From Candidatus Thorarchaeota archaeon (GTDB lineage: Archaea; Asgardarchaeota; Thorarchaeia; Thorarchaeales; Thorarchaeaceae): a stretch of 13,857 nt of DNA. Below, piece after piece: positions 1 to 13,576 of the stretch (positions are counted from its first letter, which is position 1; each line of letters starts with the position of its first letter). The notes beneath the pieces are model-generated. The model did not search any database. It worked only from the letters and a program-made list of their open reading frames with translations, and was not told where the DNA came from. The stretch covers positions 1 to 13,857 of the forward strand of contig JAEORO010000005.1 in NCBI GenBank assembly GCA_016840855.1. Direction: 5' to 3'. The translations under genes were made by a program, and so were the position numbers.

Positions 1-178
1 CATGCGGTCCAAGAAATCTAATTGTGCCGCCCACTCGAACATCTGCGCTAATCTCATCGCCTAACCACTGAAGCATGATGATTGGATCTAGGAATTTCTC
101 CCAGACCTCCTCCAAAGGTCTGGAAACACGAATCCGCAAATGAATAACAGGGAGGACATCTTCCTTCTGCTCCGCCAC
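1..178 (-). CDS. SRPBCC/START/AHSA1-like domain protein, N-terminal part (runs off the left edge)
   Basis: Manual translation from GTG at 178-176 gives MAEQKEDVLPVIHLRIRVSRPLEEVWEKFLDPIIMLQWLGDEISADVRVGGTIRFLGPH (59 codons, no stop). The PxExVW...DP..x.xW...DxRVGG..RF pattern is typical of SRPBCC/AHSA1 proteins. A GAGGTAGAGG SD-like site lies just upstream. Not in the ORF track. Confidence 0.75.
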   Translation of the reverse strand, partial: MAEQKEDVLPVIHLRIRVSRPLEEVWEKFLDPIIMLQWLGDEISADVRVGGTIRFLGPH

Positions 179-280: not shown

Positions 281-1324
281 TTACTCCAATGGACCCCACT
301 TTATAGTCATTGCGTTCCATGACCAACCAATCCCAGCAGCTGTCAAAACTACCAAATCGCCATCCTTTAGTTTCCCACTCTTGATACCTTCTTCAAGAGA
401 CACAATTGCATCATTCTGTCCCATGTGACCCCATTCTTCGAAGTATGTGGATTGCCTATAAGGATCCACTCCAAGTTCATTAGCGACATATTCGAAGGCA
501 CTTCTCTTCATTCTGAGTAGACCTAGGTAATCAATATCACTTCGCGTATAGCCACTCTTTTCCAGTGAGTCATCAACGACCTTGAGAAAGTTCTGCATAG
601 AGAGTCTATCCAGTCTTTCTTTAAGTCCATCAGGATCTGTGACATCAAGATAGATGAGTTTCTTTTCAATTGCGTCACAGGTTATTGGCATCACTGTCCC
701 TCCTGCTGGAACATACACATCCTCAGAGAATTGGCCATCGGATATTACACTTCCTTCAAGAACAACATTCCGATTGTAATCAGACCTGAGAATTAGCGCA
801 ACACCACTCGCGGCAAGGTCATGCATGAAACGTGTTCGAATATTCTCATAATCTATGAGGTCCGAATTTCGATAGCCGCTCCCAATGATAATTCGTTTGT
901 AACCATGTGTCAACATAAGTGCCTTAGCAAGTATCATTGCAACCACAATAGTTCCGCATCTCTGATTCACGTCAAAAGCCCAAGCATTCATCGCTCCTAT
1001 CTCATTTTGGAATTTGATAGCATAAGTCTGCATTGGATGTTCAGCATATACCTCACCAGCCCAAATCACAACATCAATGTCCTCTGCAGGGTTGATGCCA
1101 GCTCTTTCAATAGCAATCTTTGCAGCCTTAACACCCATTGCAACTGTATGATCATCCTTGCCCGGTACCGCTTTGCTCTTCAGACCCATTTTTGTTTCCA
1201 ATATCTCAACAGGAGTACCTGATTTGCTTGAGATATATTCAGCTGTGTGTCTTTCCTTTGGGATATATGTCCCAATTGCTTCAATTCCTACTGTTATACT
1301 CTCTACCACTATCTTCACCTTCAC
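281..1324 (-). CDS. 3-oxoacyl-ACP synthase III (FabH-fold)-like protein with non-canonical active site (KAS III-like 1)
   Basis: Motifs GIEAIGTYIP, AWAFDVNQRCGT (Cys123), DIDYLGLLRMK (Arg271 at the His position), WGHMGQND (His300/Asp305), LKDGDLVVLTAAGIGWSW. The GTGA start overlaps the upstream stop; an alternative GTG at 1309 has an AGGTGA SD-like site. Confidence 0.9.
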   Translation of the reverse strand: MKVKIVVESITVGIEAIGTYIPKERHTAEYISSKSGTPVEILETKMGLKSKAVPGKDDHTVAMGVKAAKIAIERAGINPAEDIDVVIWAGEVYAEHPMQTYAIKFQNEIGAMNAWAFDVNQRCGTIVVAMILAKALMLTHGYKRIIIGSGYRNSDLIDYENIRTRFMHDLAASGVALILRSDYNRNVVLEGSVISDGQFSEDVYVPAGGTVMPITCDAIEKKLIYLDVTDPDGLKERLDRLSMQNFLKVVDDSLEKSGYTRSDIDYLGLLRMKRSAFEYVANELGVDPYRQSTYFEEWGHMGQNDAIVSLEEGIKSGKLKDGDLVVLTAAGIGWSWNAMTIKWGPLE

Positions 1325-2902: not shown

Positions 2903-2956
2903 CTAAAGATAAACAATCTGTATCATCTCGAAATTCTGAACTAACTTTACCAAATT

Positions 2957-2973
2957 CCAAAAGATATATTATT
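2957..2973 (+). promoter_or_regulatory. Candidate archaeal-type promoter (purine-rich BRE + TATA) for the ABC operon
   Basis: CCAAAAGA followed by TATATTATT about 62-78 nt upstream of the TTG start at 3035. Sequence pattern only. Confidence 0.35.
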
Positions 2974-2999
2974 CGCCTGAATGGTCTTCACTGGGGAAA

Positions 3000-3011
3000 T
3001 CCAATTTTGGA
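3000..3011. promoter_or_regulatory. Short palindrome TCCAA-TT-TTGGA near the predicted transcription start
   Basis: 5-bp arms about 30 nt downstream of the TATA-like box. TTCCAAAA (2955-2962) is also the reverse complement of TTTTGGAA (3005-3012). Confidence 0.25.
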
Positions 3012-3034
3012 AATAGTATGAGAAGGAAGTCGAA

Positions 3035-3829
3035 TTGTCTTCAAAGAATGATATTATCCTAAGTACAAGCGGATTAACCAAAAGTTTTGGCGGACTTGTT
3101 GCTGTTAATAATGTATCACTTGATGTCGAAAAAGGGTCGATAAAGGCAATCATTGGTCCGAATGGTTCAGGTAAAACGACTTTCTTTAATCTGATTACAG
3201 GGGTCTTTCCTCCTTCGTCAGGACACATCTTTTTTGAAGGTCGAAACATAACTCGCTCAGCGATGCATCATCGGACACGACTAGGAATATCACGGTCGTA
3301 TCAGATTACTAACATATTCCCATATCAGACAACATTTGAGAATATACGATTAGCCGTTCAAGGATGCAGTGGTGCAAGAGTTAACTTCTTCGGAATGCTA
3401 AAGGAGGCAAGCTCATATGATAAGTTCCATGAGAAAGTCTTGGATATTGCTACCATCGTAGGTCTTGACCCTACAAGACTTTACGTCCCTGCTGCTCTGA
3501 TACCTCACGCTGAACAAAGAAAGCTTGAGATTGCGATGGCTCTTGCTACCGAACCACGACTCCTCTTACTGGATGAACCAGCTGCTGGAATGGCTATTGA
3601 GGAGATTCCAGATGTCATTAATGCTATTTTGAGAGTCAAGGAATCGTATGGTGAACGACTTACGCTATTAGTCGTTGAACACAAGATGGACATTGTTATG
3701 AATCTCAGCGAAGAGATTTTTGTTCTTTCAGAAGGGAAGATGATAGCACAAGGGTCTCCCAAGGAGATCCAAGAGAATGAACAAGTATTGACAGCATACC
3801 TAGGTGGTACAGATGAAAAACTTGCTTGA
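3035..3829 (+). CDS. livG: HAAT-family (branched-chain amino acid type) ABC transporter ATP-binding protein, LivG-like
   Basis: GLTKSFGGLVAVNNVS, Walker A GPNGSGKTT, RSYQ Q-loop, Walker B LLLLDEP, H-loop VEH, C-terminal AYLG. TTG start with AAGGAAG upstream. The symbol is family-level only; the substrate is unknown. Confidence 0.92.
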   Translation: MSSKNDIILSTSGLTKSFGGLVAVNNVSLDVEKGSIKAIIGPNGSGKTTFFNLITGVFPPSSGHIFFEGRNITRSAMHHRTRLGISRSYQITNIFPYQTTFENIRLAVQGCSGARVNFFGMLKEASSYDKFHEKVLDIATIVGLDPTRLYVPAALIPHAEQRKLEIAMALATEPRLLLLDEPAAGMAIEEIPDVINAILRVKESYGERLTLLVVEHKMDIVMNLSEEIFVLSEGKMIAQGSPKEIQENEQVLTAYLGGTDEKLA

Positions 3830-4532
3830 AATACAAAATGCTCACGTGTACATTGGTTCCTTTTACATCTTGCAAGGAATCTCGTTAGTTGTTCCTAAAG
3901 GAGAAGTCACCTTATTGCTTGGTAGAAATGGCTCTGGGAAAACTACTACTATGAAATCTATACTCGGTATATACCCTCCAAAACAAGGAAAGATCATTTT
4001 CAAGGGTGAGGACATTTCTAATCTTCCAACTCATAAAATAGTGAATAAGGGTATGGGATATGTCCCTGATACTCGACGGATATTTGGGACATTGACAGTT
4101 GAACAGAATCTAATTGTGTCGATGAGGAAAGGAAGCTCGCGAGAAGCTATGCATGACCGATTGAACCTAATCTTTGACTTGTTTCCTGATATGGAGGGGT
4201 TTATGAAACAGAGAGCAGGAACTCTATCAGGCGGTCAGCAACAAATGCTTGCTGTAGCAAGAGCATTGATGAATCAAAATGATTTATTGTTGATTGATGA
4301 ACCAACTGAAGGTTTGAGTCCTCTTCTAGCAAAGAACTTAATCAACTCTCTGAATAGGCTAAAGGAATTTGCCACCATATTACTGGTCGAACAGAATTTT
4401 CGTGCAGTGTCCAAGCTAGGTGATAACTACTACATTTTCGATAATGGAAAGATCGTTCATGAAGGGAACAACATGGCTGCGTTAGTAGAAGACAAAGCAC
4501 TTGTTGCGCAATATTTAGGGGTGAGCATCTGA
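3813..4532 (+). CDS. livF: HAAT-family ABC transporter ATP-binding protein, LivF-like
   Basis: Walker A GRNGSGKTT, YVPDTRRIF, signature LSGGQQQM, LLIDEPTEGL, VEQN, YLGV. ATG at 3813 (GGTGG upstream) is preferred over the track's GTG at 3804. It overlaps the end of livG. Confidence 0.92.
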   Translation: MKNLLEIQNAHVYIGSFYILQGISLVVPKGEVTLLLGRNGSGKTTTMKSILGIYPPKQGKIIFKGEDISNLPTHKIVNKGMGYVPDTRRIFGTLTVEQNLIVSMRKGSSREAMHDRLNLIFDLFPDMEGFMKQRAGTLSGGQQQMLAVARALMNQNDLLLIDEPTEGLSPLLAKNLINSLNRLKEFATILLVEQNFRAVSKLGDNYYIFDNGKIVHEGNNMAALVEDKALVAQYLGVSI

Positions 4533-5773
4533 TGACAAAGGAAAAAGAGAGATTCTCTTTTCAGGACTATTTAGAGAGAAATCCACAAGTCAGAAATAGA
4601 CTTCTGTCGACAATCGTTCTCATAGTATTAGCAACTCTATTAGTTGTAGCGGCTGTATTCAATGATAGACCTGTATCGGCAGCCGCTCTCATAGTGATGG
4701 CAATTCTGTTGGTTATAGGAGCGATAGCTAATAAAAGAATTGTATCGGTAATCGTTCTCGTAGTGTTAGCAGCCCTATTGGTTGTAATTGCGATAGATGT
4801 CTACACTTGGCAAGGATTTGTTGAAAAGGGTAGTAAATCGCTGGTTAATGGTCTTGCGCTCAGCATGTTACTCTTTCTGATGGTGTCTGGCTTTTTCTTA
4901 ATCTTTGGCCTTTGTGATGTCATTAATTTTGCTCATGGTGCTTTCTTTATGTTGGGAGGCTTTTTGGGTTATGTAATCTATATTCAGACTGAGGCAATTT
5001 TCCTTGATCCCAGTTTACCGTTCAACATCATCTTTGGAGCCAATAATTTTGTTATGTCAGCTACAGCTTTTGGTATAAGTATCATTGGAGCTACTACAAT
5101 TATGGCTCTTATCGGTGGAGGAATAGAGGTCTTTACGATTCGACGACTCTATGGGAACCCTATCGCTCAGATACTACTAACAGTTGGGTTTATGGTTATT
5201 ATTTCACAGATTGCGGAGATAATCTGGGGGCCTCCACAATTCTCCTATTTCATTATTCCAGATTCGCAAATAAACTACTTTTTCATAATGGGTGTCCTTG
5301 ATCTAGGAGGAGGGATAATATTTCCACTTTATCGTATTTTCCTAATTTTCCTAGGATTTGCAGTTGCTGGAATAATGTTCGTAGGGTTCAAGAAGACTCG
5401 TATCGGACTCCAAATACAAGCGGGTATAGAAGATTCAGAGATGGTTGAAGCGTTAGGAACGGATATCAGAAAATTGTTTACAATTGTGTTTATGTTAGGT
5501 GCAGGCCTTGCAGGACTTTCAGGAGCAGTCCTGGTCCCTTGGATTGGTGCGAACTCAGGGCATGGTCTTACCTATCTAATCTACGCATTTGTCATAGTTG
5601 TTGTAGGGGGGGCTCATTATGGGCGCTTTGAAGGGACATTTTTTGGCGCCTTGATAGTAGGCTTATCAATTCAATTTACATCATATTTCATTCCATTTCT
5701 TGAGAACATTATTGTGTTTATAATAATGGTCGTGATTCTGATAATAAGACCAGGAGGTCTGACAGGAACATGA
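4532..5773 (+). CDS. livH: HAAT-family ABC transporter permease, LivH-like, with N-terminal TM extension
   Basis: NGLALSMLLFLMVSGFFLIFGLCDVINFAHGAFFMLG, TRIGLQIQAGIEDSEMVEALG, AFVIVVVGG, RPGGL. TGATG coupling to livF. Confidence 0.92.
   Translation: MTKEKERFSFQDYLERNPQVRNRLLSTIVLIVLATLLVVAAVFNDRPVSAAALIVMAILLVIGAIANKRIVSVIVLVVLAALLVVIAIDVYTWQGFVEKGSKSLVNGLALSMLLFLMVSGFFLIFGLCDVINFAHGAFFMLGGFLGYVIYIQTEAIFLDPSLPFNIIFGANNFVMSATAFGISIIGATTIMALIGGGIEVFTIRRLYGNPIAQILLTVGFMVIISQIAEIIWGPPQFSYFIIPDSQINYFFIMGVLDLGGGIIFPLYRIFLIFLGFAVAGIMFVGFKKTRIGLQIQAGIEDSEMVEALGTDIRKLFTIVFMLGAGLAGLSGAVLVPWIGANSGHGLTYLIYAFVIVVVGGAHYGRFEGTFFGALIVGLSIQFTSYFIPFLENIIVFIIMVVILIIRPGGLTGT
4595..4801 (+). repeat. Degenerate 3 x 69-bp (23-aa) tandem repeat, each unit encoding one hydrophobic helix
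   Basis: Units NRLLSTIVLIVLATLLVVAAVFN (4595-4663), DRPVSAAALIVMAILLVIGAIAN (4664-4732), KRIVSVIVLVVLAALLVVIAIDV (4733-4801). Ungapped hand counts give 47/69, 47/69 and 46/69 nt identities. Confidence 0.85.
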
Positions 5774-7611
5774 GGAACGAATATAGTAATGGAAGTGGGT
5801 CGCGTTTACGAGATAAAGTGTATAGTATACCCTCGGTATTATCAAAGAATAGAACGTTCATAGCTATTCTCGCTTTTATGTACATGCTCCCATTGAGTAC
5901 AGCCGCAAGCACGTCTCCAGTTAGAACTCTAATTTACATATTGACGCGGATTATGATTCTTGGTCTTCTAGCAATGTCCTTTGATCTGCAGTTAGGAAGG
6001 GCATCACTTCTAAACTTCGGACATGTTGCACTTTTTGGTGTGAGTGCCTATGTCATGGCATTTACCTTAAATGCAGATTTTCTACCGCCACCTTTCAATC
6101 TTATAGCTGCGATACCATATCCCCTTACGATAGTTTTGGGAATTTTGGTTGGTGCTGGGCTAGGGTTGATAATGGGTCTTACAACTAGTCGAATGAGGGG
6201 GACAGCTTTCGCATTCATTGCTTTAGCGATTGCTATGTTTATCTATAATTTCTTTGCTCAAAACCCTGATATTTCTGGGGGCGAAACAGGACTAACGGTT
6301 CCAACTCCGGATCTTATTAGAACTGGTCCATTCTATTTGTTCTTTGTCGCAATTGCATTTGTATTTCTTGCAGCTTTTGTTGGAATGGTCATTCTATATT
6401 TGAAAAAACGACTGGACACCTTTGGTATAGTTTTAGTGGCTCCAGTTATGATTTCACTTTTAGGTGTTCTATTGGTAATTGGAACAAATATTCTTGGAAC
6501 TGTATTAGTTGCTCTAGCTTTTATTTTGATGATTTTTCTCTTCTGGTTTGAACGAGATACGACGGTTACTGATCCTCTTCAATACTCTGAAAGTCATGCA
6601 TATGCGTATGATGAGCACAAAACTAACATACTAACTGCCTATGCATTACCATTTATTGCAATACTAATTGCTTTGGCTGGGATAGCTCTTGCTTTCGGAG
6701 ACAATATTACTCAAATGGTTTCTTTGTGGATAGAAGATTCCTCCATTTTTTACTTCACTATTCCAGTACAGTACTATCTAGTATTAACCTGCCTTGTGAT
6801 AACTTACATCTTCATCAAACGATTGATAGCATCTCCCTTTGGTAGAATGGTTGCTGCTGTTGCTCAAAATGAGGAACGTGCTGAAGCATTGGGCTACAAT
6901 AGTTATCGCACCAAAATAGTTGTACTTGTTATAAGTGGAGCGATTGCTGGTCTCTCAGGAGCGTTGTATTCACCATATCTTAGAATCATTGATCCTGAAA
7001 CAACCTTAGGAGTAGGAATAACTATAGATGCAATGCTATTCACTATCATAGGAGGAATTGGCACATTATTTGGTCCACTTCTCGGAACAGGAGTAGTAGC
7101 GTATTCTGAGCTGAATCTTGTAGACTTCTTCACCGCAGTGCTAAACATGGATGGGAGATATTGGTTAGTTGGCTTGGGTATAATTTACATTGTCATTGTC
7201 CTATTCATGCCTCTTGGAATTGTCGGTTCCTCTGCGAGAAAGTTTAACTCTCTTAAAGGAAAACTTCAACGAATAACTTTCCAATTTAGGATAAAAGTAC
7301 GGCAATTTGAGTTAAAAACGAGGAGATTTGAGTTTGGGCTGAAGGATGTTGATTACTGGATCTTTGGATTATTGGGAACAATGGCTGTAATCCTTTTATT
7401 AACAGAGGACAGTAGATTTCTCCTTGTTTCTGTTGGGATATTTGGATTTCTGTTACTTGTTGGTTCACTACTGACAATAATTTTCAGAAGAGAGATTTGG
7501 TCAAAATTAAAATCATATGGCAGAAGGGTGAGGTTGAGATTAAGAGGGCTTGGTTCAAGATTGAAATCCCTTTTTGGAAAGAGAAGATTGAAACAAGAAG
7601 GAAGTGATTGA
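5770..7611 (+). CDS. livM: HAAT-family ABC transporter permease, LivM-like, with large insertion and C-terminal extension
   Basis: AMSFDLQLGRASLLNFGHVALFGVSAY, GGETGL, SPFGRMVAAVAQNEERAEALGY, IIGGIGTLFGPLLG, FMPLGIVG. 613 aa. ATGA coupling to livH. Confidence 0.9.
   Translation: MRNEYSNGSGSRLRDKVYSIPSVLSKNRTFIAILAFMYMLPLSTAASTSPVRTLIYILTRIMILGLLAMSFDLQLGRASLLNFGHVALFGVSAYVMAFTLNADFLPPPFNLIAAIPYPLTIVLGILVGAGLGLIMGLTTSRMRGTAFAFIALAIAMFIYNFFAQNPDISGGETGLTVPTPDLIRTGPFYLFFVAIAFVFLAAFVGMVILYLKKRLDTFGIVLVAPVMISLLGVLLVIGTNILGTVLVALAFILMIFLFWFERDTTVTDPLQYSESHAYAYDEHKTNILTAYALPFIAILIALAGIALAFGDNITQMVSLWIEDSSIFYFTIPVQYYLVLTCLVITYIFIKRLIASPFGRMVAAVAQNEERAEALGYNSYRTKIVVLVISGAIAGLSGALYSPYLRIIDPETTLGVGITIDAMLFTIIGGIGTLFGPLLGTGVVAYSELNLVDFFTAVLNMDGRYWLVGLGIIYIVIVLFMPLGIVGSSARKFNSLKGKLQRITFQFRIKVRQFELKTRRFEFGLKDVDYWIFGLLGTMAVILLLTEDSRFLLVSVGIFGFLLLVGSLLTIIFRREIWSKLKSYGRRVRLRLRGLGSRLKSLFGKRRLKQEGSD
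7282..7344 (+). repeat. Degenerate 3 x 21-bp (7-aa) repeat in the LivM C-terminal extension
   Basis: CAATTTAGGATAAAAGTACGG / CAATTTGAGTTAAAAACGAGG / AGATTTGAGTTTGGGCTGAAG, encoding QFRIKVR / QFELKTR / RFEFGLK. Confidence 0.55.
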
Positions 7612-8431
7612 TTTGCCTTATGCACCTGTGGGAGACATCGAGATCTATTATGAAATTCACGGACCACTTGACGCTCCACCATTAGTACTCATTGGAGGAT
7701 GGGCTAGCTATCGTTGGATTTGGTTTCGACAGATTCCAGTCTTCAAGAAGAAATACAAATGCATTGTATTTGATAACCGTGGAGCAGGAAGAAGTTCCAA
7801 ACCAGACTATCCCTACACAGTGGAAATGTTCGCTCAAGATACAATTGGCTTGCTGGATGCATTGCATATTGATAGCGCTCATATCTTGGGGATTTCAATG
7901 GGAGGATTGATAGCTCAGCAAATTGCCATTTCTTACCCAAAGAAAGTTCGGAGCTTGATTATTGTGTCAAGCCATTTTGGGGGGCCCAACCAAATTCGGA
8001 TGGATGAAAGAACAATGGCTTTGTTAATTGCCCTACCCACTGAAACAATCTCAAAGGAGCAAGCTAGGGCAATGAGATATAGGGCAACATTCACTCCGCA
8101 ATTCCTACAGGAAAATAAGTCAGTAATAGAACAAATAGATGGATGGGCTGAGAAATATCCTACACCACTCTATGCTCAAGTGCATCAAAGTGCAGCAACA
8201 GCTGAGTTTGATGCTGAAACTCAATTAAACCAGATACATGCACCAACACTAATTGTTCACGGCGATAATGACCTTGCTGTTCCACCTAAGAACGCTGAGC
8301 TTATTGCTGAGAGAATATCGGAATCAAAATTGGTATTCATCAAGGGTGGCGCACATTTCAGTATCATCGAAAAGTATGAGGATTTCAATAATACTGTGAT
8401 GGAGTTTATTGATGAAGTGGAGAAAGAATGA
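7604..8431 (+). CDS. Alpha/beta-fold serine hydrolase (esterase/lipase, enol-lactonase-like), paralog 1
   Basis: FDNRGAGRS, nucleophile elbow GISMGG, HGDND, GGAHF. The true start may be TTG at 7613 (MPYAPVG..., aligning with MPVCKVN... of paralog 2, with GTGAT upstream). Confidence 0.92.
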   Translation: MIDLPYAPVGDIEIYYEIHGPLDAPPLVLIGGWASYRWIWFRQIPVFKKKYKCIVFDNRGAGRSSKPDYPYTVEMFAQDTIGLLDALHIDSAHILGISMGGLIAQQIAISYPKKVRSLIIVSSHFGGPNQIRMDERTMALLIALPTETISKEQARAMRYRATFTPQFLQENKSVIEQIDGWAEKYPTPLYAQVHQSAATAEFDAETQLNQIHAPTLIVHGDNDLAVPPKNAELIAERISESKLVFIKGGAHFSIIEKYEDFNNTVMEFIDEVEKE

Positions 8432-8508
8432 TTCACGATTTTAAAGAATTAAGAAATTTTGCTTGGACATAGTATCAGTTTGAATGATTATAAAAAGAGA
8501 TGATATAG

Positions 8509-9519
8509 ATGATTCGTTCAGCAGTTGTCACAGGCTTGGGAATATACATCCCTGAGAAAATGTTGACAAATGAAGATATTGAGCTGATGCTCAACCGTCC
8601 TGGGACTGCTGAGTGGCTTGTAAAGAATGTTGGTATCAGACAACGTCATATCATGGCTGATGATGAAGTGACATCTGATCTTGCAGCAAATGCAAGTCGT
8701 GAGGCATTGGAAAAGGCAGGTATCGATGCTGAGGAACTTGACCTAGTAATTTTGAGTACTGATACACCAGACTATCTTTCTCCAGCAACATCAGTAGTAG
8801 TTCAACACAAGATTGGTGCGATAAATGCAGGTACATTTGATGTCAATTGTGCATGTGCTGGTTTGGTCACATCCTTGGACATTGCATCTCGATTTATAGG
8901 ATCAGATTCAGAGATTAATTCAGTTTTAGTGATTGGTGCTTATGGCATGACTAAATTTGTAGATTGGACCGACCATTATACATGCACCTTGTTTGCAGAT
9001 GCTGCAGGAGCAATGATACTACAATCAAGCGAGGACAAGGAGGGATTCATTGCCTCAAAACTGATTGCTGATGGCTCCTTTCATGACCACCTAGGAGTCT
9101 TTGTCGGGGGTACCGCAGAACCTCCCACAATTGAAGCAATTCAGAATAATAAGCATCATTTAGCTTTTCGCAAACGATTTCCTGCAGACACCAACCTCAA
9201 ATACTGGCCAGAACTAACAAGAGATTGTTTGACGAAAGCTAATCTAACTATTGATGATTTAGAGTGGATTTTCTTCACTCAAGTAAACTTGCGCACCATT
9301 GAAGCGGTTATGAAGGAACTGTGCTTGCCACTTGAAAAGACCCATAATGTCATGGATAAATGGGGATACACAGGTTCTGCATGTATAGCACTAGCAATGT
9401 ATGATGCCATTGACCAAGGGAAGCTTCCACCACCAGGAGAAGGAAATGGAGAGTATATTGCGCTGTGTTCGTCAGGAGGAGGATTCAACATGGCAGCCGC
9501 TGTGTTGAGATGGTGGTAA
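8509..9519 (+). CDS. 3-oxoacyl-ACP synthase III (FabH-fold)-like protein with non-canonical active site (KAS III-like 2)
   Basis: GLGIYIPEKMLTN, GIRQRH, TDTPDYLSPATS, FDVNCACAG (Cys116), LFADAAGA, FTQVN (Thr257 for His of HQAN), WGYTGSAC (Tyr287 for Asn of GNTSAAS), SGGGF. Confidence 0.92.
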   Translation: MIRSAVVTGLGIYIPEKMLTNEDIELMLNRPGTAEWLVKNVGIRQRHIMADDEVTSDLAANASREALEKAGIDAEELDLVILSTDTPDYLSPATSVVVQHKIGAINAGTFDVNCACAGLVTSLDIASRFIGSDSEINSVLVIGAYGMTKFVDWTDHYTCTLFADAAGAMILQSSEDKEGFIASKLIADGSFHDHLGVFVGGTAEPPTIEAIQNNKHHLAFRKRFPADTNLKYWPELTRDCLTKANLTIDDLEWIFFTQVNLRTIEAVMKELCLPLEKTHNVMDKWGYTGSACIALAMYDAIDQGKLPPPGEGNGEYIALCSSGGGFNMAAAVLRWW

Positions 9520-9597
9520 TGAGTTTTTTATTGTGGTGGTGAGTGCCTACATAGTAGCATAGTTGAAAGATGATTGAATTCTTGCTGAGGGATACAA

Positions 9598-11148
9598 ATG
9601 GTGAATCAGTTTGATTATTTATCCAAGAGAGATGTCTTCTCACCGGAAGTTGAAGCCTTGGTCGATGTGGAAACAGGAAGAAGGTATACATATAGGGTAT
9701 TTAACGAGCGAGCGAACCAAGTGGCGAATTTCCTCCAAAAGGAGATAGGATTTCAAAAGGGAGATCGTTTATGTATTATTGCTCAAAATAGCCTGGAATA
9801 TTGGGAGACCTTTTTCGGATGCCAAAAATGTGGAGGCATTTTCAGTCCACTAAACTGGCGATTAGTAGCTCGAGAGTTAGCCGGTTTAATCGATGATTTA
9901 ACCCCCTCTGCATTATTCTTTGATAGAGACATGGCCAAGGTTGCATCGGAGCTAAAAACACTGGTTTCAATTGAACATTGGATTTCATTGAGCCCAGAAG
10001 GAGAGCAGATTGATGATTCCCTTTCATATGAAGACATTATGAATAATGCTCCATCCAGTCCACCTAATGTGGTGAATCTCTCCTATGAAGATCCAATGGG
10101 TATAGTATTTACTGGAGGAACAACTGGCTTACCGAAAGGTGCAATGATTACCTATAGACATGTTGCATTCAATACACTCAACACGATTAGAGACATCCTT
10201 CCAGCTGATGTATACATCAACCATCTACCTCTGTTTCATGTGGGAGGACTATATGTATATGCTATTCCACTTTTCATTCTCGGAGGAAAAGTAATCCAAA
10301 TGAAGAGGTGGGATCTTGATACTTTGATAGATGTGATCAATAAAGAGAAACCAAACTTTTTCTTCGCGGTGCCAACACAATACCGAATGTTGATGAATCA
10401 TTCAAATTTTGAATCAGTTAACTTCAGTAGTGTTCGATTCCTGACATCAGGTGGAGAGCCTTTACCCATAGACATCATCAGGACATTTCGAGAGAAGCAT
10501 GGTGTCAAATTCAAACAAGGTTTTGGAATGACGGAAGTCGGACCAGGGTGTTTTGCTCTAGACCCTTGGGATGCAGAACAGAAGATTGGGAGTATTGGTA
10601 CGCCAAATTTCTTTATTGATGCAAAAGTTGTTGATCCTGAAACAGGAAAGGACTGTAGTGCAAATGAGGTTGGTGAACTTCTATTTCGAGGCCCAACAGT
10701 GACAATAGGTTATTGGAATCGACCAGAATTGAATAAGACTCTTTTAGACGAAGATGGTTGGTTTAAAACTGGGGATATGGTGTATTTTGACAAGGAAGGA
10801 TATTACTATGTAGTGGATCGAGTAAAAGACATGTTCATCTCAGGAGGCGAAAATGTCTATCCACGAGAGATTGAGAAGGTTCTCGAGCAGCATCCAAAAA
10901 TTGCTGAAGTGCAGGTAATCGGAGTGCCTGATTCGAAATGGGGAGAGGTTGGACGCGCTATTGTAGTATTGAAACCCGGACAAGAAGCAACAGAGAAAGA
11001 GATAATCGACTTCTGCAAAGATAAATTGGCAAAATTCAAAATTCCAAAATCTGTTGTCCCCATTGACAGTTTTACTCCGTATATCTCTGGAGCAGGAAAG
11101 ATCCTAAAACGGAAACTGCAGGAGGATTATGGACAAGAGGAGAAATAA
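9598..11148 (+). CDS. Long-chain fatty acid/acyl-CoA ligase (ANL superfamily), paralog 2
   Basis: PLNWRL, FTGGTTGLPKGA, PLFHVGG, GFGMTEVGP, KTGD, RVKDMFISGGENVYP, KIPK, GKILKR. GAGGGA upstream of the ATG. Confidence 0.93.
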   Translation: MVNQFDYLSKRDVFSPEVEALVDVETGRRYTYRVFNERANQVANFLQKEIGFQKGDRLCIIAQNSLEYWETFFGCQKCGGIFSPLNWRLVARELAGLIDDLTPSALFFDRDMAKVASELKTLVSIEHWISLSPEGEQIDDSLSYEDIMNNAPSSPPNVVNLSYEDPMGIVFTGGTTGLPKGAMITYRHVAFNTLNTIRDILPADVYINHLPLFHVGGLYVYAIPLFILGGKVIQMKRWDLDTLIDVINKEKPNFFFAVPTQYRMLMNHSNFESVNFSSVRFLTSGGEPLPIDIIRTFREKHGVKFKQGFGMTEVGPGCFALDPWDAEQKIGSIGTPNFFIDAKVVDPETGKDCSANEVGELLFRGPTVTIGYWNRPELNKTLLDEDGWFKTGDMVYFDKEGYYYVVDRVKDMFISGGENVYPREIEKVLEQHPKIAEVQVIGVPDSKWGEVGRAIVVLKPGQEATEKEIIDFCKDKLAKFKIPKSVVPIDSFTPYISGAGKILKRKLQEDYGQEEK

Positions 11149-11150
11149 CT

Positions 11151-11945
11151 ATGCCAGTCTGCAAAGTGAATGGGGTGAAAATCTACTACGAATTACATGG
11201 GGAAGGTGAACCTGTCATCTTTGGTAATGGCGTTTTCTCAAACACATTGGGATGGGTTAATCAACTTCCGGTCTTCTCCGAAAAGTATCAGGTCATTCTA
11301 TACGATATGCGTGGACAGGGACAAAGTGACAAACCTGAAGGTGTTTATTCCTTCGAGATCCATGTTGAGGATCAAAAGGCACTTCTCGACGATCTTGGAA
11401 TTTCAAGAGTCCATCATGTCGGGATAAGCTACGGAGCGGAACTTGGTCTTGTTTTTGCACTAAAATATCCTGAAATGTTGAAGAGCTTGGTTGTTTGCAG
11501 TGCTGTTTCATATTTGGAATCAGTCCTCTATGAAATGGCACAACTTTGGAGATACGTTTGCGAGCTTGGTGATCCTGACCTTTTTTATCACGCTACTGTA
11601 CCATTGAATTTTGGAGAAACTTTCATTCGAGAAAACACTGCTATCTTAGAACAAGCAAAAGTTCGTTATAGCCAATTGGATTATCCACCACTTGTAAGAT
11701 TAATGGATGCTTTTCTTAAACTAAATATCTCAGAGAAGCTATCACAAATCAAAACACCGACTTGTGTTATTGCTGGGGAGAATGATATCTTAAAACCAGT
11801 CCATCCATACTCAAGGCTAATTCATGACCGTATACCAAATTCAGAACTGATCATTATTCCTGATTCAGGTCATGCTGTTACATTCGAAAAACCTGAGGAG
11901 TTCAATAGCATAACGCTTGGGTTTTTGAACAAGCACCATGAGTAA
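11151..11945 (+). CDS. Alpha/beta-fold serine hydrolase, paralog 2
   Basis: YDMRGQGQSDKP, GISYG nucleophile elbow, GENDILKP, SGHAVTFEKPEEF. Starts 2 nt after the ligase 2 stop, with GAGGAG upstream. Confidence 0.92.
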   Translation: MPVCKVNGVKIYYELHGEGEPVIFGNGVFSNTLGWVNQLPVFSEKYQVILYDMRGQGQSDKPEGVYSFEIHVEDQKALLDDLGISRVHHVGISYGAELGLVFALKYPEMLKSLVVCSAVSYLESVLYEMAQLWRYVCELGDPDLFYHATVPLNFGETFIRENTAILEQAKVRYSQLDYPPLVRLMDAFLKLNISEKLSQIKTPTCVIAGENDILKPVHPYSRLIHDRIPNSELIIIPDSGHAVTFEKPEEFNSITLGFLNKHHE

Positions 11946-11961
11946 ATTGCTATGCCACTTG

Positions 11962-12068
11962 AGGTTCCTTAAGAGATAAATAGTAGGGAACCTATCTATT
12001 AGAGATAGACATAGAACAGTCTATGTTCTGACTTTAACAGTACACTATCATGAGAAGTACTGTTAGGG
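11962..12068 (+). promoter_or_regulatory. Cluster of four consecutive inverted repeats upstream of the binding-protein gene
   Basis: AGGTTCCTTA-N12-TAGGGAACCT (11962-11993, 9/10); CTATCT-N5-AGATAG (11992-12008); ACATAGA-N4-TCTATGT (12009-12026); TAACAGTAC-N13-GTACTGTTA (12035-12065), which abuts the SD GGGGAGG (12066-12072). Confidence 0.55.
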
Positions 12069-12079
12069 GAGGATAGAAG

Positions 12080-13576
12080 ATGAGAAAGTTAAGAACAATA
12101 TCTCTATCTCTTTCGTTGCTATTACTAGTTTCCATCTTCCTGCCTTGTTTTATGGTCAGACCGGCTGTGGCGCAAACTCCTGAACCAATTAAAATTGGAA
12201 TATTCGTCCCAGAAACAGCAGGTCTAGTGACATACGCACCATGGACAAAACAGGGTTTCGAGTTGGGAATGATATATGCAACGACGATGATGGGATACAA
12301 TAATGAGAATGAAACCGAAGCGGGTAGACCCTATGAGCTTTATTATTATGATACGCAAGGCGACCCAGTCCACTCTGCGGCTCTTGCGGTTGAAGCTATT
12401 GAAACCGATGGAATTGATATTCTTGTTGGAGGAACATCTAGTGCAGTTGCCGCTGCAATAGCGCCTATCGCAGAAAGCTATGAGAAGCTGTATTTCATTA
12501 CTCCAGCTGCTGCTTCTTCGTTGACCGAATCCGGCTTTAATCCGTACATATTCCGTATCGCAAGAAACAGCTGGCACGATGCTTATGCCGGCGTTACATA
12601 TGCTATGGATACACTCGGTTACACGAAATTTGCCTTTCTTGCTGCTGACTATTCCTTTGGATATGCTGGCGTTGATTCAATGGCAGCAGTAATCGAAGAG
12701 AAAGGAGGAACAGTACTAGGTTCCGTATATGCAAGTCTTGTTGATACAGATTTCTCTCAAGAGATTGATGCTCTCAAAGCAATTGATTTAGTAAACGATA
12801 TTGAGTATCTGTTCATCATCTGGGCTGGTAACTTCGCATATCTGTATGGGGATCTGGCAACCTATAATCTTGCAGCTGACATGGAGATTGCTGGTGCATG
12901 TATCGATATACTTTCAATGAATCTCATTGAAGCAAGTTTGACACCTCCAGCTACCTACATCAACTCCACGGGTCTCTGTCTATATGGTTATGATCTACCT
13001 AACAACGCAGTAAATGATTGGATGGTGGCGCAACATGTTGATAGAGATATCTATCCTGATCTTCCATATTACTCATTTCGGGCACCAGAGCTTTTCACAG
13101 CAGCAGGATTTGCTACAGCACAGTTCCTTGTGGATGTAACAAATGAAATCGCTGACCTTGATACTGGTTTGATGATAAACTATCTAGAAAGTGGAGTCAC
13201 GATAGATTGTCCTAAGGGATCAATATACTTGAGACCTGAAGACCACCAAGGACTTGCAGAGATGTATATAGCAAAAGCTGTGAATGATACCCGTACAGGA
13301 TCTGAAACAGAGAATATGGTAATTGCTGAACTAGTTGAAACACTAGACCGCGACACAGTCGCACCTCCAGTTGCATCAGAATGGAACGGAGATCCTTATG
13401 TCCCAGGTGGATTCGCACCACCACCGACTACAACGACATCACCAACAGCAACAACAACCCCAACAGGTACGGTAACACCACCCCCAGGTTTTGATATCTT
13501 GACTGTTAGTGTAGTTGCAATCGTTGGAGTAGTTCTAGGATTTATCGTAGCTGCAGTAATCTTTCGTAGGAAGTAA
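12080..13576 (+). CDS. Leu/Ile/Val-binding-protein family (type I PBP) ABC substrate-binding protein with C-terminal membrane anchor
   Basis: Signal peptide ending AVA-Q; PIKIG, YDTQGDP, LVGGTSSAVA, YIFRIARNS, LAADYSFG, PKG...RPEDHQ. Thr/Pro linker, hydrophobic helix and RRK tail at the C-terminus. Strong SD GGGGAGG. Confidence 0.9.
   Translation: MRKLRTISLSLSLLLLVSIFLPCFMVRPAVAQTPEPIKIGIFVPETAGLVTYAPWTKQGFELGMIYATTMMGYNNENETEAGRPYELYYYDTQGDPVHSAALAVEAIETDGIDILVGGTSSAVAAAIAPIAESYEKLYFITPAAASSLTESGFNPYIFRIARNSWHDAYAGVTYAMDTLGYTKFAFLAADYSFGYAGVDSMAAVIEEKGGTVLGSVYASLVDTDFSQEIDALKAIDLVNDIEYLFIIWAGNFAYLYGDLATYNLAADMEIAGACIDILSMNLIEASLTPPATYINSTGLCLYGYDLPNNAVNDWMVAQHVDRDIYPDLPYYSFRAPELFTAAGFATAQFLVDVTNEIADLDTGLMINYLESGVTIDCPKGSIYLRPEDHQGLAEMYIAKAVNDTRTGSETENMVIAELVETLDRDTVAPPVASEWNGDPYVPGGFAPPPTTTTSPTATTTPTGTVTPPPGFDILTVSVVAIVGVVLGFIVAAVIFRRK

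Follow-up and report, generated by a model that had tools for sequence, protein, structure and literature searches.

KAS1 of Thorarchaeota, a KAS III-fold enzyme that is not FabH, and its acyl-CoA gene neighbourhood

The contig JAEORO010000005.1 of a Candidatus Thorarchaeota archaeon was analysed over its entire length of 13,857 bp, hereafter called the window; its source genome measures 3.36 Mb and is 92% complete. Near the left end of the window, a gene for a KAS III-like protein, KAS1, directly follows the gene of an acyl-coenzyme A (acyl-CoA) synthetase, ACS1. KAS1 has the KAS III fold and belongs to the thiolase superfamily, and it is not FabH. Its active site brings together an invariant cysteine, a His-Asp pair at the site of the FabH asparagine and an invariant glutamate, and we see an even chance that it depends on CoA and either forms 3-oxoacyl-CoA or cleaves it. 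An earlier interpretation of the DNA letters (the sequence-only reading) had set KAS1 apart from FabH and had taken it for an acyl-CoA-dependent transferase forming esters or amides or, alternatively, for a non-decarboxylating condensing enzyme.

The KAS1 gene

The features on which the argument turns are the following.

281..1324, minus strand: KAS III-like 1 (KAS1), open reading frame of 347 amino acids with a GTG start, member of NF005308 / PRK06840
1321..2871, minus strand: acyl-CoA synthetase ACS1, whose TGA stop overlaps the GTG of the KAS1 frame within 4 nucleotides
1052..1054, minus strand: Glu91 (GAG), at the position of the catalytic Glu of 3-hydroxy-3-methylglutaryl-CoA (HMG-CoA) synthase, 32 residues before the Cys
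956..958, minus strand: Cys123 (TGC), at the position of the FabH nucleophile Cys112, in 121/121 family members
818..823, minus strand: His168-Asp169 (CAT GAC), changed along with Arg271
512..514, minus strand: Arg271 (AGA), replacement of the family His in the Thor clade
410..427, minus strand: His300...Asp305 (GHMGQND), at the FabH Asn274 site, both residues in 121/121 family members

The database gene model of KAS1 (P0002) is 342 amino acids long and starts five codons downstream of the GTG. Residue numbers, as in the sequence-only reading, follow the longer frame. Reading the DNA again finds Cys123, Arg271, His300 (CAC, 427-425) and Asp305 (GAT, 412-410) on exactly the codons and at the positions that had been reported.

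Family and fold

Which family does KAS1 belong to? Pfam matches it with ACP_syn_III and ACP_syn_III_C, both of which it has in common with FabH. It lies above the cut-off of NF005308 (416.8 bits, cut-off 315), with residues 11-345 aligned to positions 4-337 of the 339 in the model, and below those for FabH (TIGR00747, 120.5 against 292.1; NF006829, 119.6 against 249) and for HMG-CoA synthase (NF003274, 64.1 against 244; TIGR00748, 41.1 against 353). Its N-terminal half matches the archaeal HMG-CoA synthase model NF003274 with an E-value of 1.1e-17.

The AlphaFold2 model of KAS1, generated from 41 sequences, has a mean predicted local distance difference test score of 95.9 and presents a generic KAS III fold: BioZ, PqsC, FabH, ZhuH and PqsD are tied at Z 38-40 (Foldseek, VIA), and the KAS III matches superimpose with a root-mean-square deviation of about 2 Å across 310-327 residues. 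The 50 matches listed do not include CerJ, DpsC or ChlB3, which does not exclude them as structural relatives. A comparison of the family profile with these proteins gives E-values of 5e-58 for FabH, 3.7e-27 for CerJ, 8.6e-27 for DpsC and 7.9e-25 for ChlB3, and so lends no support to kinship with the CerJ/ChlB/DpsC group.

OleA chains are matched only by profile positions 28-148 (E about 1e-20). An OleABCD-like pathway to beta-lactones or olefins, which would unite a KAS III, an AMP-ligase and an alpha/beta hydrolase, was considered and rejected on this partial match and on ACS1 being nearest to true acyl-CoA synthetases; the closest solved structures of ACS1 are feruloyl/fatty-acyl-CoA synthetases (E 1e-98) and FadD13. 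In the ESM Atlas the clusters closest to KAS1 are bacterial (Thermotogota, Bacillota) and labelled '3-oxoacyl-ACP synthase', with no functional name.

KAS1 is an accessory gene. The NF005308 cut-off is exceeded in 12 of 31 genomes (the source genome and 30 relatives) and in 10 of the 19 of the genus, source included, while 0 of 14 control genomes have such a hit. Distant family members were found in 9 of 301 genomes of the phylum of genome G031 (E<=1e-80). The Syntrophaceae genome of related locus L073 (G032) has four family paralogues, three of them on contig C7 (1856-16059) and another on contig C38.

Catalytic residues

Across 121 close family members Cys123, His300 and Asp305 are each conserved 121/121, which is far beyond chance. 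HMMER alignments to FabH structures place Asn274 on His300 and the last Ser of GNTSAAS on Asp305, bearing out the earlier assignment of these two residues. The partner histidine is less straightforward to map. All HMMER alignments to FabH structures put His244 on Leu270 and Gln245 on Arg271. Alignments by hhalign (probability 96.6) and MAFFT to the archaeal HMG-CoA synthase of a congener (L085) place the catalytic His of its FHM motif on residue 271 after a one-residue gap, with the following Met on Met272 of KAS1. Arg271 had been equated with the FabH His; this is one column off in the FabH alignments, and agrees with the HMG-CoA synthase alignments and with the family His at 271. It holds within one alignment column because the family has His there and KAS1 has Arg. 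Whichever alignment is chosen, KAS1 lacks a His both at the canonical position and next to it.

At residue 271, 78 of the close members carry Arg, 41 His and 2 Lys; residue 270 varies only among Ile, Leu and Val, and Lys273 and Arg274 are each present in 121/121. In most of the more distant representatives the sequence is (L/I/T)H(M/T/V)K...GHxxxxD. The Cys-His-Asn triad of FabH, as defined in the relevant part of PMC10054515, is thus incomplete in KAS1: Cys123 is present, Leu270 or Arg271 stands for the His and His300 for the Asn.

In HMG-CoA synthase the catalytic Glu acts as general base. Its counterpart in KAS1 is Glu91, which is invariant in the 121 family members and in 4/4 bacterial orthologues and aligns with the Glu of the GSES motif in BLASTP, in the same hhalign alignment and in MAFFT. 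From Glu to Cys the spacing is 32 in KAS1 (91 to 123) and, by count, in archaeal HMG-CoA synthase. VirC likewise has Glu82 and Cys114 at a spacing of 32, and catalysis depends on the HMG-CoA synthase triad Glu82/Cys114/His250, according to the pertinent part of PMC11522927. This triad too is incomplete in KAS1, where Glu91 and Cys123 align and Arg271 takes the His position. Glu91 at this position lends support to the earlier alternative, a non-decarboxylating condensing enzyme.

Arg271 and the changes coupled to it

In a tree of 120 family members and 3 outgroups, all rows with Arg or Lys at residue 271 form one clade of 79 (Shimodaira-Hasegawa-like approximate likelihood ratio test, 99), and the 41 His rows fall outside it. 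If the outgroup rooting is accepted, this would fit a single His-to-Arg change at the base of the Thor-type clade. Arg271 is therefore a real, conserved feature of one Thor-type clade and not of the whole family, with His in 41 of the 121.

The codons tell a similar story. Of the 80 related loci fetched, 76 match the motif used for counting: 40 relatives have Arg (AGG 14, AGA 8, CGA 7, CGC 6, CGG 5) and the others His (CAT 26, CAC 10). The remaining four are variants missed by the motif, all with His: L066 (HMKD), L073 (HMKP), L075 (HMKK) and L074. That Arg271 lies two substitutions from a His codon is true for AGA, while the CGA, CGC and CGG of relatives are one step from CAY. Two runs, each from a different further study, yield contigs that cover codon 271 without differences (X13 record 1, spanning 281-704; X17 record 6, spanning 399-610); the contigs of runs X7 and X8 do not span it. 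The possibility that Arg271 is unique to this assembly, raised earlier, thus falls away with these contigs and with the 40 relatives. Arg271 is no sequencing error, because it defines a clade, is written with five codons and is unchanged in the contigs of both other studies.

Did other residues change along with it? Eight positions are fixed differently in the Arg/Lys clade (79) and the His rows (41), namely 37, 86, 111, 168, 169, 216, 271 and 312. Asp169 occurs in 79/79 of the clade and in 0/41 of the His rows, where Ser, Ala or Asn is found instead; His168 occurs in 77/79 against 0/41, with Ile, Phe, Tyr or Leu in the His rows. Residue 168 aligns with Phe157 of E. coli FabH (HMMER alignment), which adjoins Asn274 in a docked complex described in one part of the review PMC10054515. 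These patterns suggest a coupled remodelling of the pocket at 168, 169 and 271, in which a salt bridge between Arg271 and Asp169 is possible. An independent repeat of a His shift from 271 to 168 was not found among the family representatives compared: His168 is present in KAS1, P0013 and P0074 only, the latter two being members of the Arg clade, and where a representative has neither His nor Gln at 271, its position 168 holds Trp, Phe, Tyr, Ser or a gap.

Gene neighbourhood and genome background

The 80 related loci are nearly all from Asgard archaea (Thor, Promethearchaeota/Loki, Hod, Hermod and Heimdall types). Bacteria contribute four: L066 (Deltaproteobacteria), L073 (Syntrophaceae), L075 and L076. 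An ACS1 homologue ends within 150 nucleotides upstream of KAS1 on the same strand in 67 of the 74 loci with enough room; those without one directly upstream are L020, L027, L066, L073, L075, L076 and L079. A MaoC-like dehydratase gene directly follows KAS1 in 35 of 71 loci with room, and Pfam confirmed the assignment in 5/5 checked. After KAS1 a convergent alpha/beta hydrolase gene is found in 27 of 66 loci, mostly of Loki and Hermod types.

Bacterial loci add further partners. In L075 the order is acyl-CoA synthetase, short-chain dehydrogenase/reductase (SDR) and KAS, the SDR being a PRK08217 3-ketoacyl reductase (400.8 against 298). L076 shows an acyl-CoA synthetase, a substrate-binding protein, an ATP-binding cassette (ABC) component and a hydrolase, followed by the KAS among two SDRs and two enoyl-CoA hydratases. 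In L066, from a deltaproteobacterial metagenome-assembled genome, the KAS is followed by a 3-ketoacyl-reductase-like SDR inside a polyhydroxyalkanoate (PHA) cluster (4360-13001). This cluster includes two class III PhaC-like genes (which at 258 and 153 stay under their cut-off, 365), a PhaR-like gene (104 against 109), a short-chain-length PHA depolymerase domain (236 against 150), an acyl-CoA synthetase gene and an open reading frame of 137 amino acids without family. Here the KAS1 orthologue may stand in for PhaA.

The best NCBIfam match of ACS1 is NF005307 (PRK06839), whose accession directly precedes that of the KAS1 family, NF005308 (PRK06840). These consecutive accessions suggest that ligase and KAS1 are also neighbours in the bacterial genomes behind those clusters.

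On which carrier does KAS1 work? The PP-binding domain of acyl carrier protein (ACP), PF00550, has 0 matches in the source genome and was found in 11 of 14 controls; at 92% completeness its absence is not proof. Together with the score of 120.5 against 292.1 for TIGR00747 and the loss of the His/Asn pair, this upholds the earlier verdict of 'not FabH'. KAS1 probably works on CoA thioesters, not on ACP, and the database name '3-oxoacyl-ACP synthase' can almost certainly not be right for an archaeon that is ACP-free and lacks the FabH His/Asn pair. The genome has one carboxyltransferase.

The remainder of the window reads as follows, with the importer, the hydrolases, ACS2 and the substrate-binding protein assigned from profile matches.

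2-178, minus strand: AHSA1/SRPBCC-like gene, start only (fragment), downstream of KAS1
2947-3249, minus strand: open reading frame of 100 amino acids without family match, located in the divergent intergenic region and overlapping the beginning of the first ABC ATPase gene
3035..7611, plus strand: Liv/Urt-type ABC importer, two ATPases and two permeases
7604..8431, plus strand: alpha/beta hydrolase 1
8509..9519, plus strand: KAS III-like 2 (KAS2), Cys kept, His replaced by Thr, Asn replaced by Tyr
9598..11148, plus strand: acyl-CoA synthetase ACS2
11151..11945, plus strand: alpha/beta hydrolase 2
12080..13576, plus strand: substrate-binding protein of the ABC importer

The frame at 2947-3249 is probably not a gene. 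The importer arrangement of the window recurs in many Thor loci. Its second permease (5770-7611, plus strand) is unusually long at 613 amino acids; BPD_transp_2 covers residues 223-470 only and leaves an N-terminal extension of some 220 residues unexplained. KAS2 has the motifs FFTQVN, in which Thr replaces the His, and GYTGSAC, in which Tyr replaces the Asn and Cys stands at the position of Asp305 in KAS1; the sequence WGYTGSAC occurs in 15 copies among the window and the related loci. KAS2 exceeds the cut-off of the 'beta-ketoacyl-ACP synthase 3' model NF006829 (259 against 249), and annotation pipelines would therefore call it FabH.

Proposed function and its alternatives

How might KAS1 act? 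We infer its chemistry, direction and substrates from the observed fold, residues, conservation, linkage and ACP search. In the proposed scheme, the co-transcribed acyl-CoA synthetase would convert an imported organic acid into its acyl-CoA, and Cys123, activated by the His300-Asp305 pair, would accept the acyl group. A second CoA thioester (acetyl- or malonyl-CoA) would then be joined to give 3-oxoacyl-CoA, or the reverse thiolytic cleavage would take place. Glu91 would be the likely base for the carbanion, without decarboxylation, and residue 271, His in most of the family and Arg here, may stabilise the enolate or oxyanion as hydrogen-bond donor or positive charge. In relatives the product would pass to the adjacent 3-ketoacyl reductase or to the (R)-specific MaoC hydratase/dehydratase. 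Making or breaking a C-C bond is the simplest role, because every conserved partner acts on acyl-CoA or on a 3-oxo, 3-hydroxy or enoyl thioester. Our confidence in KAS1 as a 3-oxoacyl-CoA-forming or -cleaving enzyme is evenly balanced for and against.

Several points weigh against it. The window and its three closest relatives (L003-L005) have no MaoC gene downstream of KAS1, nor the convergent alpha/beta hydrolase, and no reductase gene lies within the window; the MaoC orthologue of the source genome (67% identity) is on contig C166, adjoining a histidine kinase gene. The source genome already has six thiolases. Cys-His-Asp is how the site has been described in the acyl-transferring KAS III homologues CerJ and ChlB3, and the linkage to importer and hydrolases fits acid or ester salvage, which is compatible with other chemistries too. 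The position of Glu91 is not fixed in distant relatives, where GSEY and GExY are equally common; because their acidic residue can sit one later, Glu91 is a feature of the Asgard-centred subfamily and not of the whole superfamily. Glu91, Arg271 and His168 may or may not point towards Cys123. The family is uncharacterised: a literature search found no paper mentioning PRK06840, and among the matches listed for Asgard FabH and fatty acids none concerned the KAS1 family, judged by title and the opening of the abstract.

Could KAS1 instead transfer acyl groups, as the sequence-only reading proposed? A CerJ/ChlB3-type enzyme would carry the acyl group made by ACS1 on Cys123 and pass it, aided by His300-Asp305, to an O or N acceptor or to water. 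This is unlikely, although it is to be reckoned with, because Cys-His-Asp is the arrangement known for such enzymes. Cys123, His300 and Asp305 are invariant, and their His-to-Asp spacing of 5 equals that of ChlB3 (His296/Asp301), where, as in CerJ, the His-Asp pair is proposed to activate the Cys in the section of PMC9573744 on these enzymes. DpsC has the same spacing in its Ser-His-Asp (His297/Asp302), plus a second His, and condenses as well as transfers, according to the corresponding part of PMC12664062. The missing His/Asn pair, which FabH needs for malonyl decarboxylation, and the alpha/beta hydrolases of the cassette, which could undo esters, would also suit this activity. Against it stand the family profile, far nearer to FabH than to CerJ, DpsC or ChlB3, and the second His at 271 in most of the family, which recalls the condensing DpsC. 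Moreover, simple acyl transfer has no use for an invariant Glu where HMG-CoA synthase has its base, and the partners (dehydratase, ketoreductases, hydratases) act on 3-oxo- and 3-hydroxyacyl thioesters. The conserved ligase, the MaoC genes and the bacterial 3-ketoacyl reductases and enoyl-CoA hydratases point to C-C chemistry rather than to ester or amide formation. What is left of the sequence-only reading is an enzyme that is not FabH and possibly non-decarboxylating; its CerJ-like ester or amide former is not favoured.

An HMG-CoA-synthase-like reaction is very unlikely. Here Glu91 would deprotonate the acyl group on Cys123, which would add to the keto group of a second substrate and, after hydrolysis, yield a branched 3-hydroxy acid thioester. 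The match of Glu91 and Cys123 in position and spacing, that of residue 271 with the catalytic His in hhalign and MAFFT and the hit of the N-terminal half to NF003274 speak for it; yet the model scores are far below the cut-offs (64.1 against 244 for NF003274), the His is Arg in KAS1, HMG-CoA synthase keeps Asn where the KAS1 family has His300-Asp305, and the closest structures are FabH, BioZ and PqsC. A catalytically dead or structural subunit like PqsB, or a decaying gene, has a close to negligible probability. Such a protein could explain why the canonical His and Asn are both missing and why the cassette contains another unusual KAS III gene, but the replacement residues are invariant across 121 members, Arg271 is kept through five synonymous codons, the frame is intact and KAS1 occurs without KAS2 within 10 kb in loci of the Loki and Hermod types.

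Returning to a 3-oxoacyl-CoA-forming or -cleaving KAS1, a far more specific version can be conceived, which we consider quite improbable. The Asgard ligase-KAS1(-MaoC) operon would be an ACP-free KAS III chain-extension module replacing the condensing step that thiolase/DUF35 carries out in the CoA-dependent fatty-acid synthase of archaea, and the Thorarchaeota active site would have been remodelled all at once, with His271 becoming Arg, Ile/Phe168 His and Ser169 Asp. The Arg, probably salt-bridged to Asp169, would take over the charge stabilisation of the canonical His, and the new His would line the acyl pocket.

Comparison with known systems and significance

With FabH/KAS III (E. coli 1hn9/6x7r, B. 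subtilis FabHA 8vd9) and with BioZ, PqsD and PqsC, relatives that use CoA, KAS1 shares the fold and the nucleophilic Cys. FabH differs from it by having His244 and Asn274 where KAS1 has Arg271 (or Leu270) and His300 with Asp305, and a Thr in place of Glu91. CerJ, ChlB3, ChlB6 and DpsC have, like KAS1, a His at the FabH-Asn site and an Asp five residues on; the equivalence of His300/Asp305 to the pairs of CerJ, ChlB3 and DpsC rests on motif, spacing and published residue numbers. DpsC also has two His residues, as do the relatives of KAS1 with His271, whereas its nucleophile is Ser and that of KAS1 Cys123. CerJ, ChlB3 and DpsC are farther from KAS1 in sequence than FabH is, and KAS1 differs from the CerJ/ChlB/DpsC group by Arg271, by its invariant Glu91 and by being archaeal, ACP-free and outside a polyketide cluster. 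With HMG-CoA synthase it shares the Glu and Cys positions, the 32-residue spacing and the alignment of residue 271 with the catalytic His, but it has Arg for this His and His-Asp for the Asn, and scores far below the cut-offs.

Archaea make fatty acids on CoA with a ketothiolase/DUF35, a ketoacyl-CoA reductase, a MaoC dehydratase and an enoyl-CoA reductase, as stated in the excerpted text of a preprint (10.1101/2024.07.05.601840), in which the terms 'FabH', 'KAS' and 'ketosynthase' do not occur. That synthase is ACP-free, as is the system here, and KAS1 is linked to a MaoC-type dehydratase in the 35 of 71 loci noted above. Unlike it, however, the KAS1 module is tied to an importer and hydrolases, and the archaeal synthase condenses with a thiolase and its DUF35 partner, not with a KAS III.

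What does KAS1 mean for its family and its host? The site Glu-Cys-(His/Arg)-His-Asp mixes, on a KAS III fold, features of HMG-CoA synthase with those of the CerJ/DpsC group, and the natural His and Arg clades amount to a ready-made experiment on the role of the second catalytic position. Asgard archaea, closer to eukaryotes than any other relatives known, are ACP-free, and the way in which they handle fatty acyl groups bears on the 'lipid divide'.

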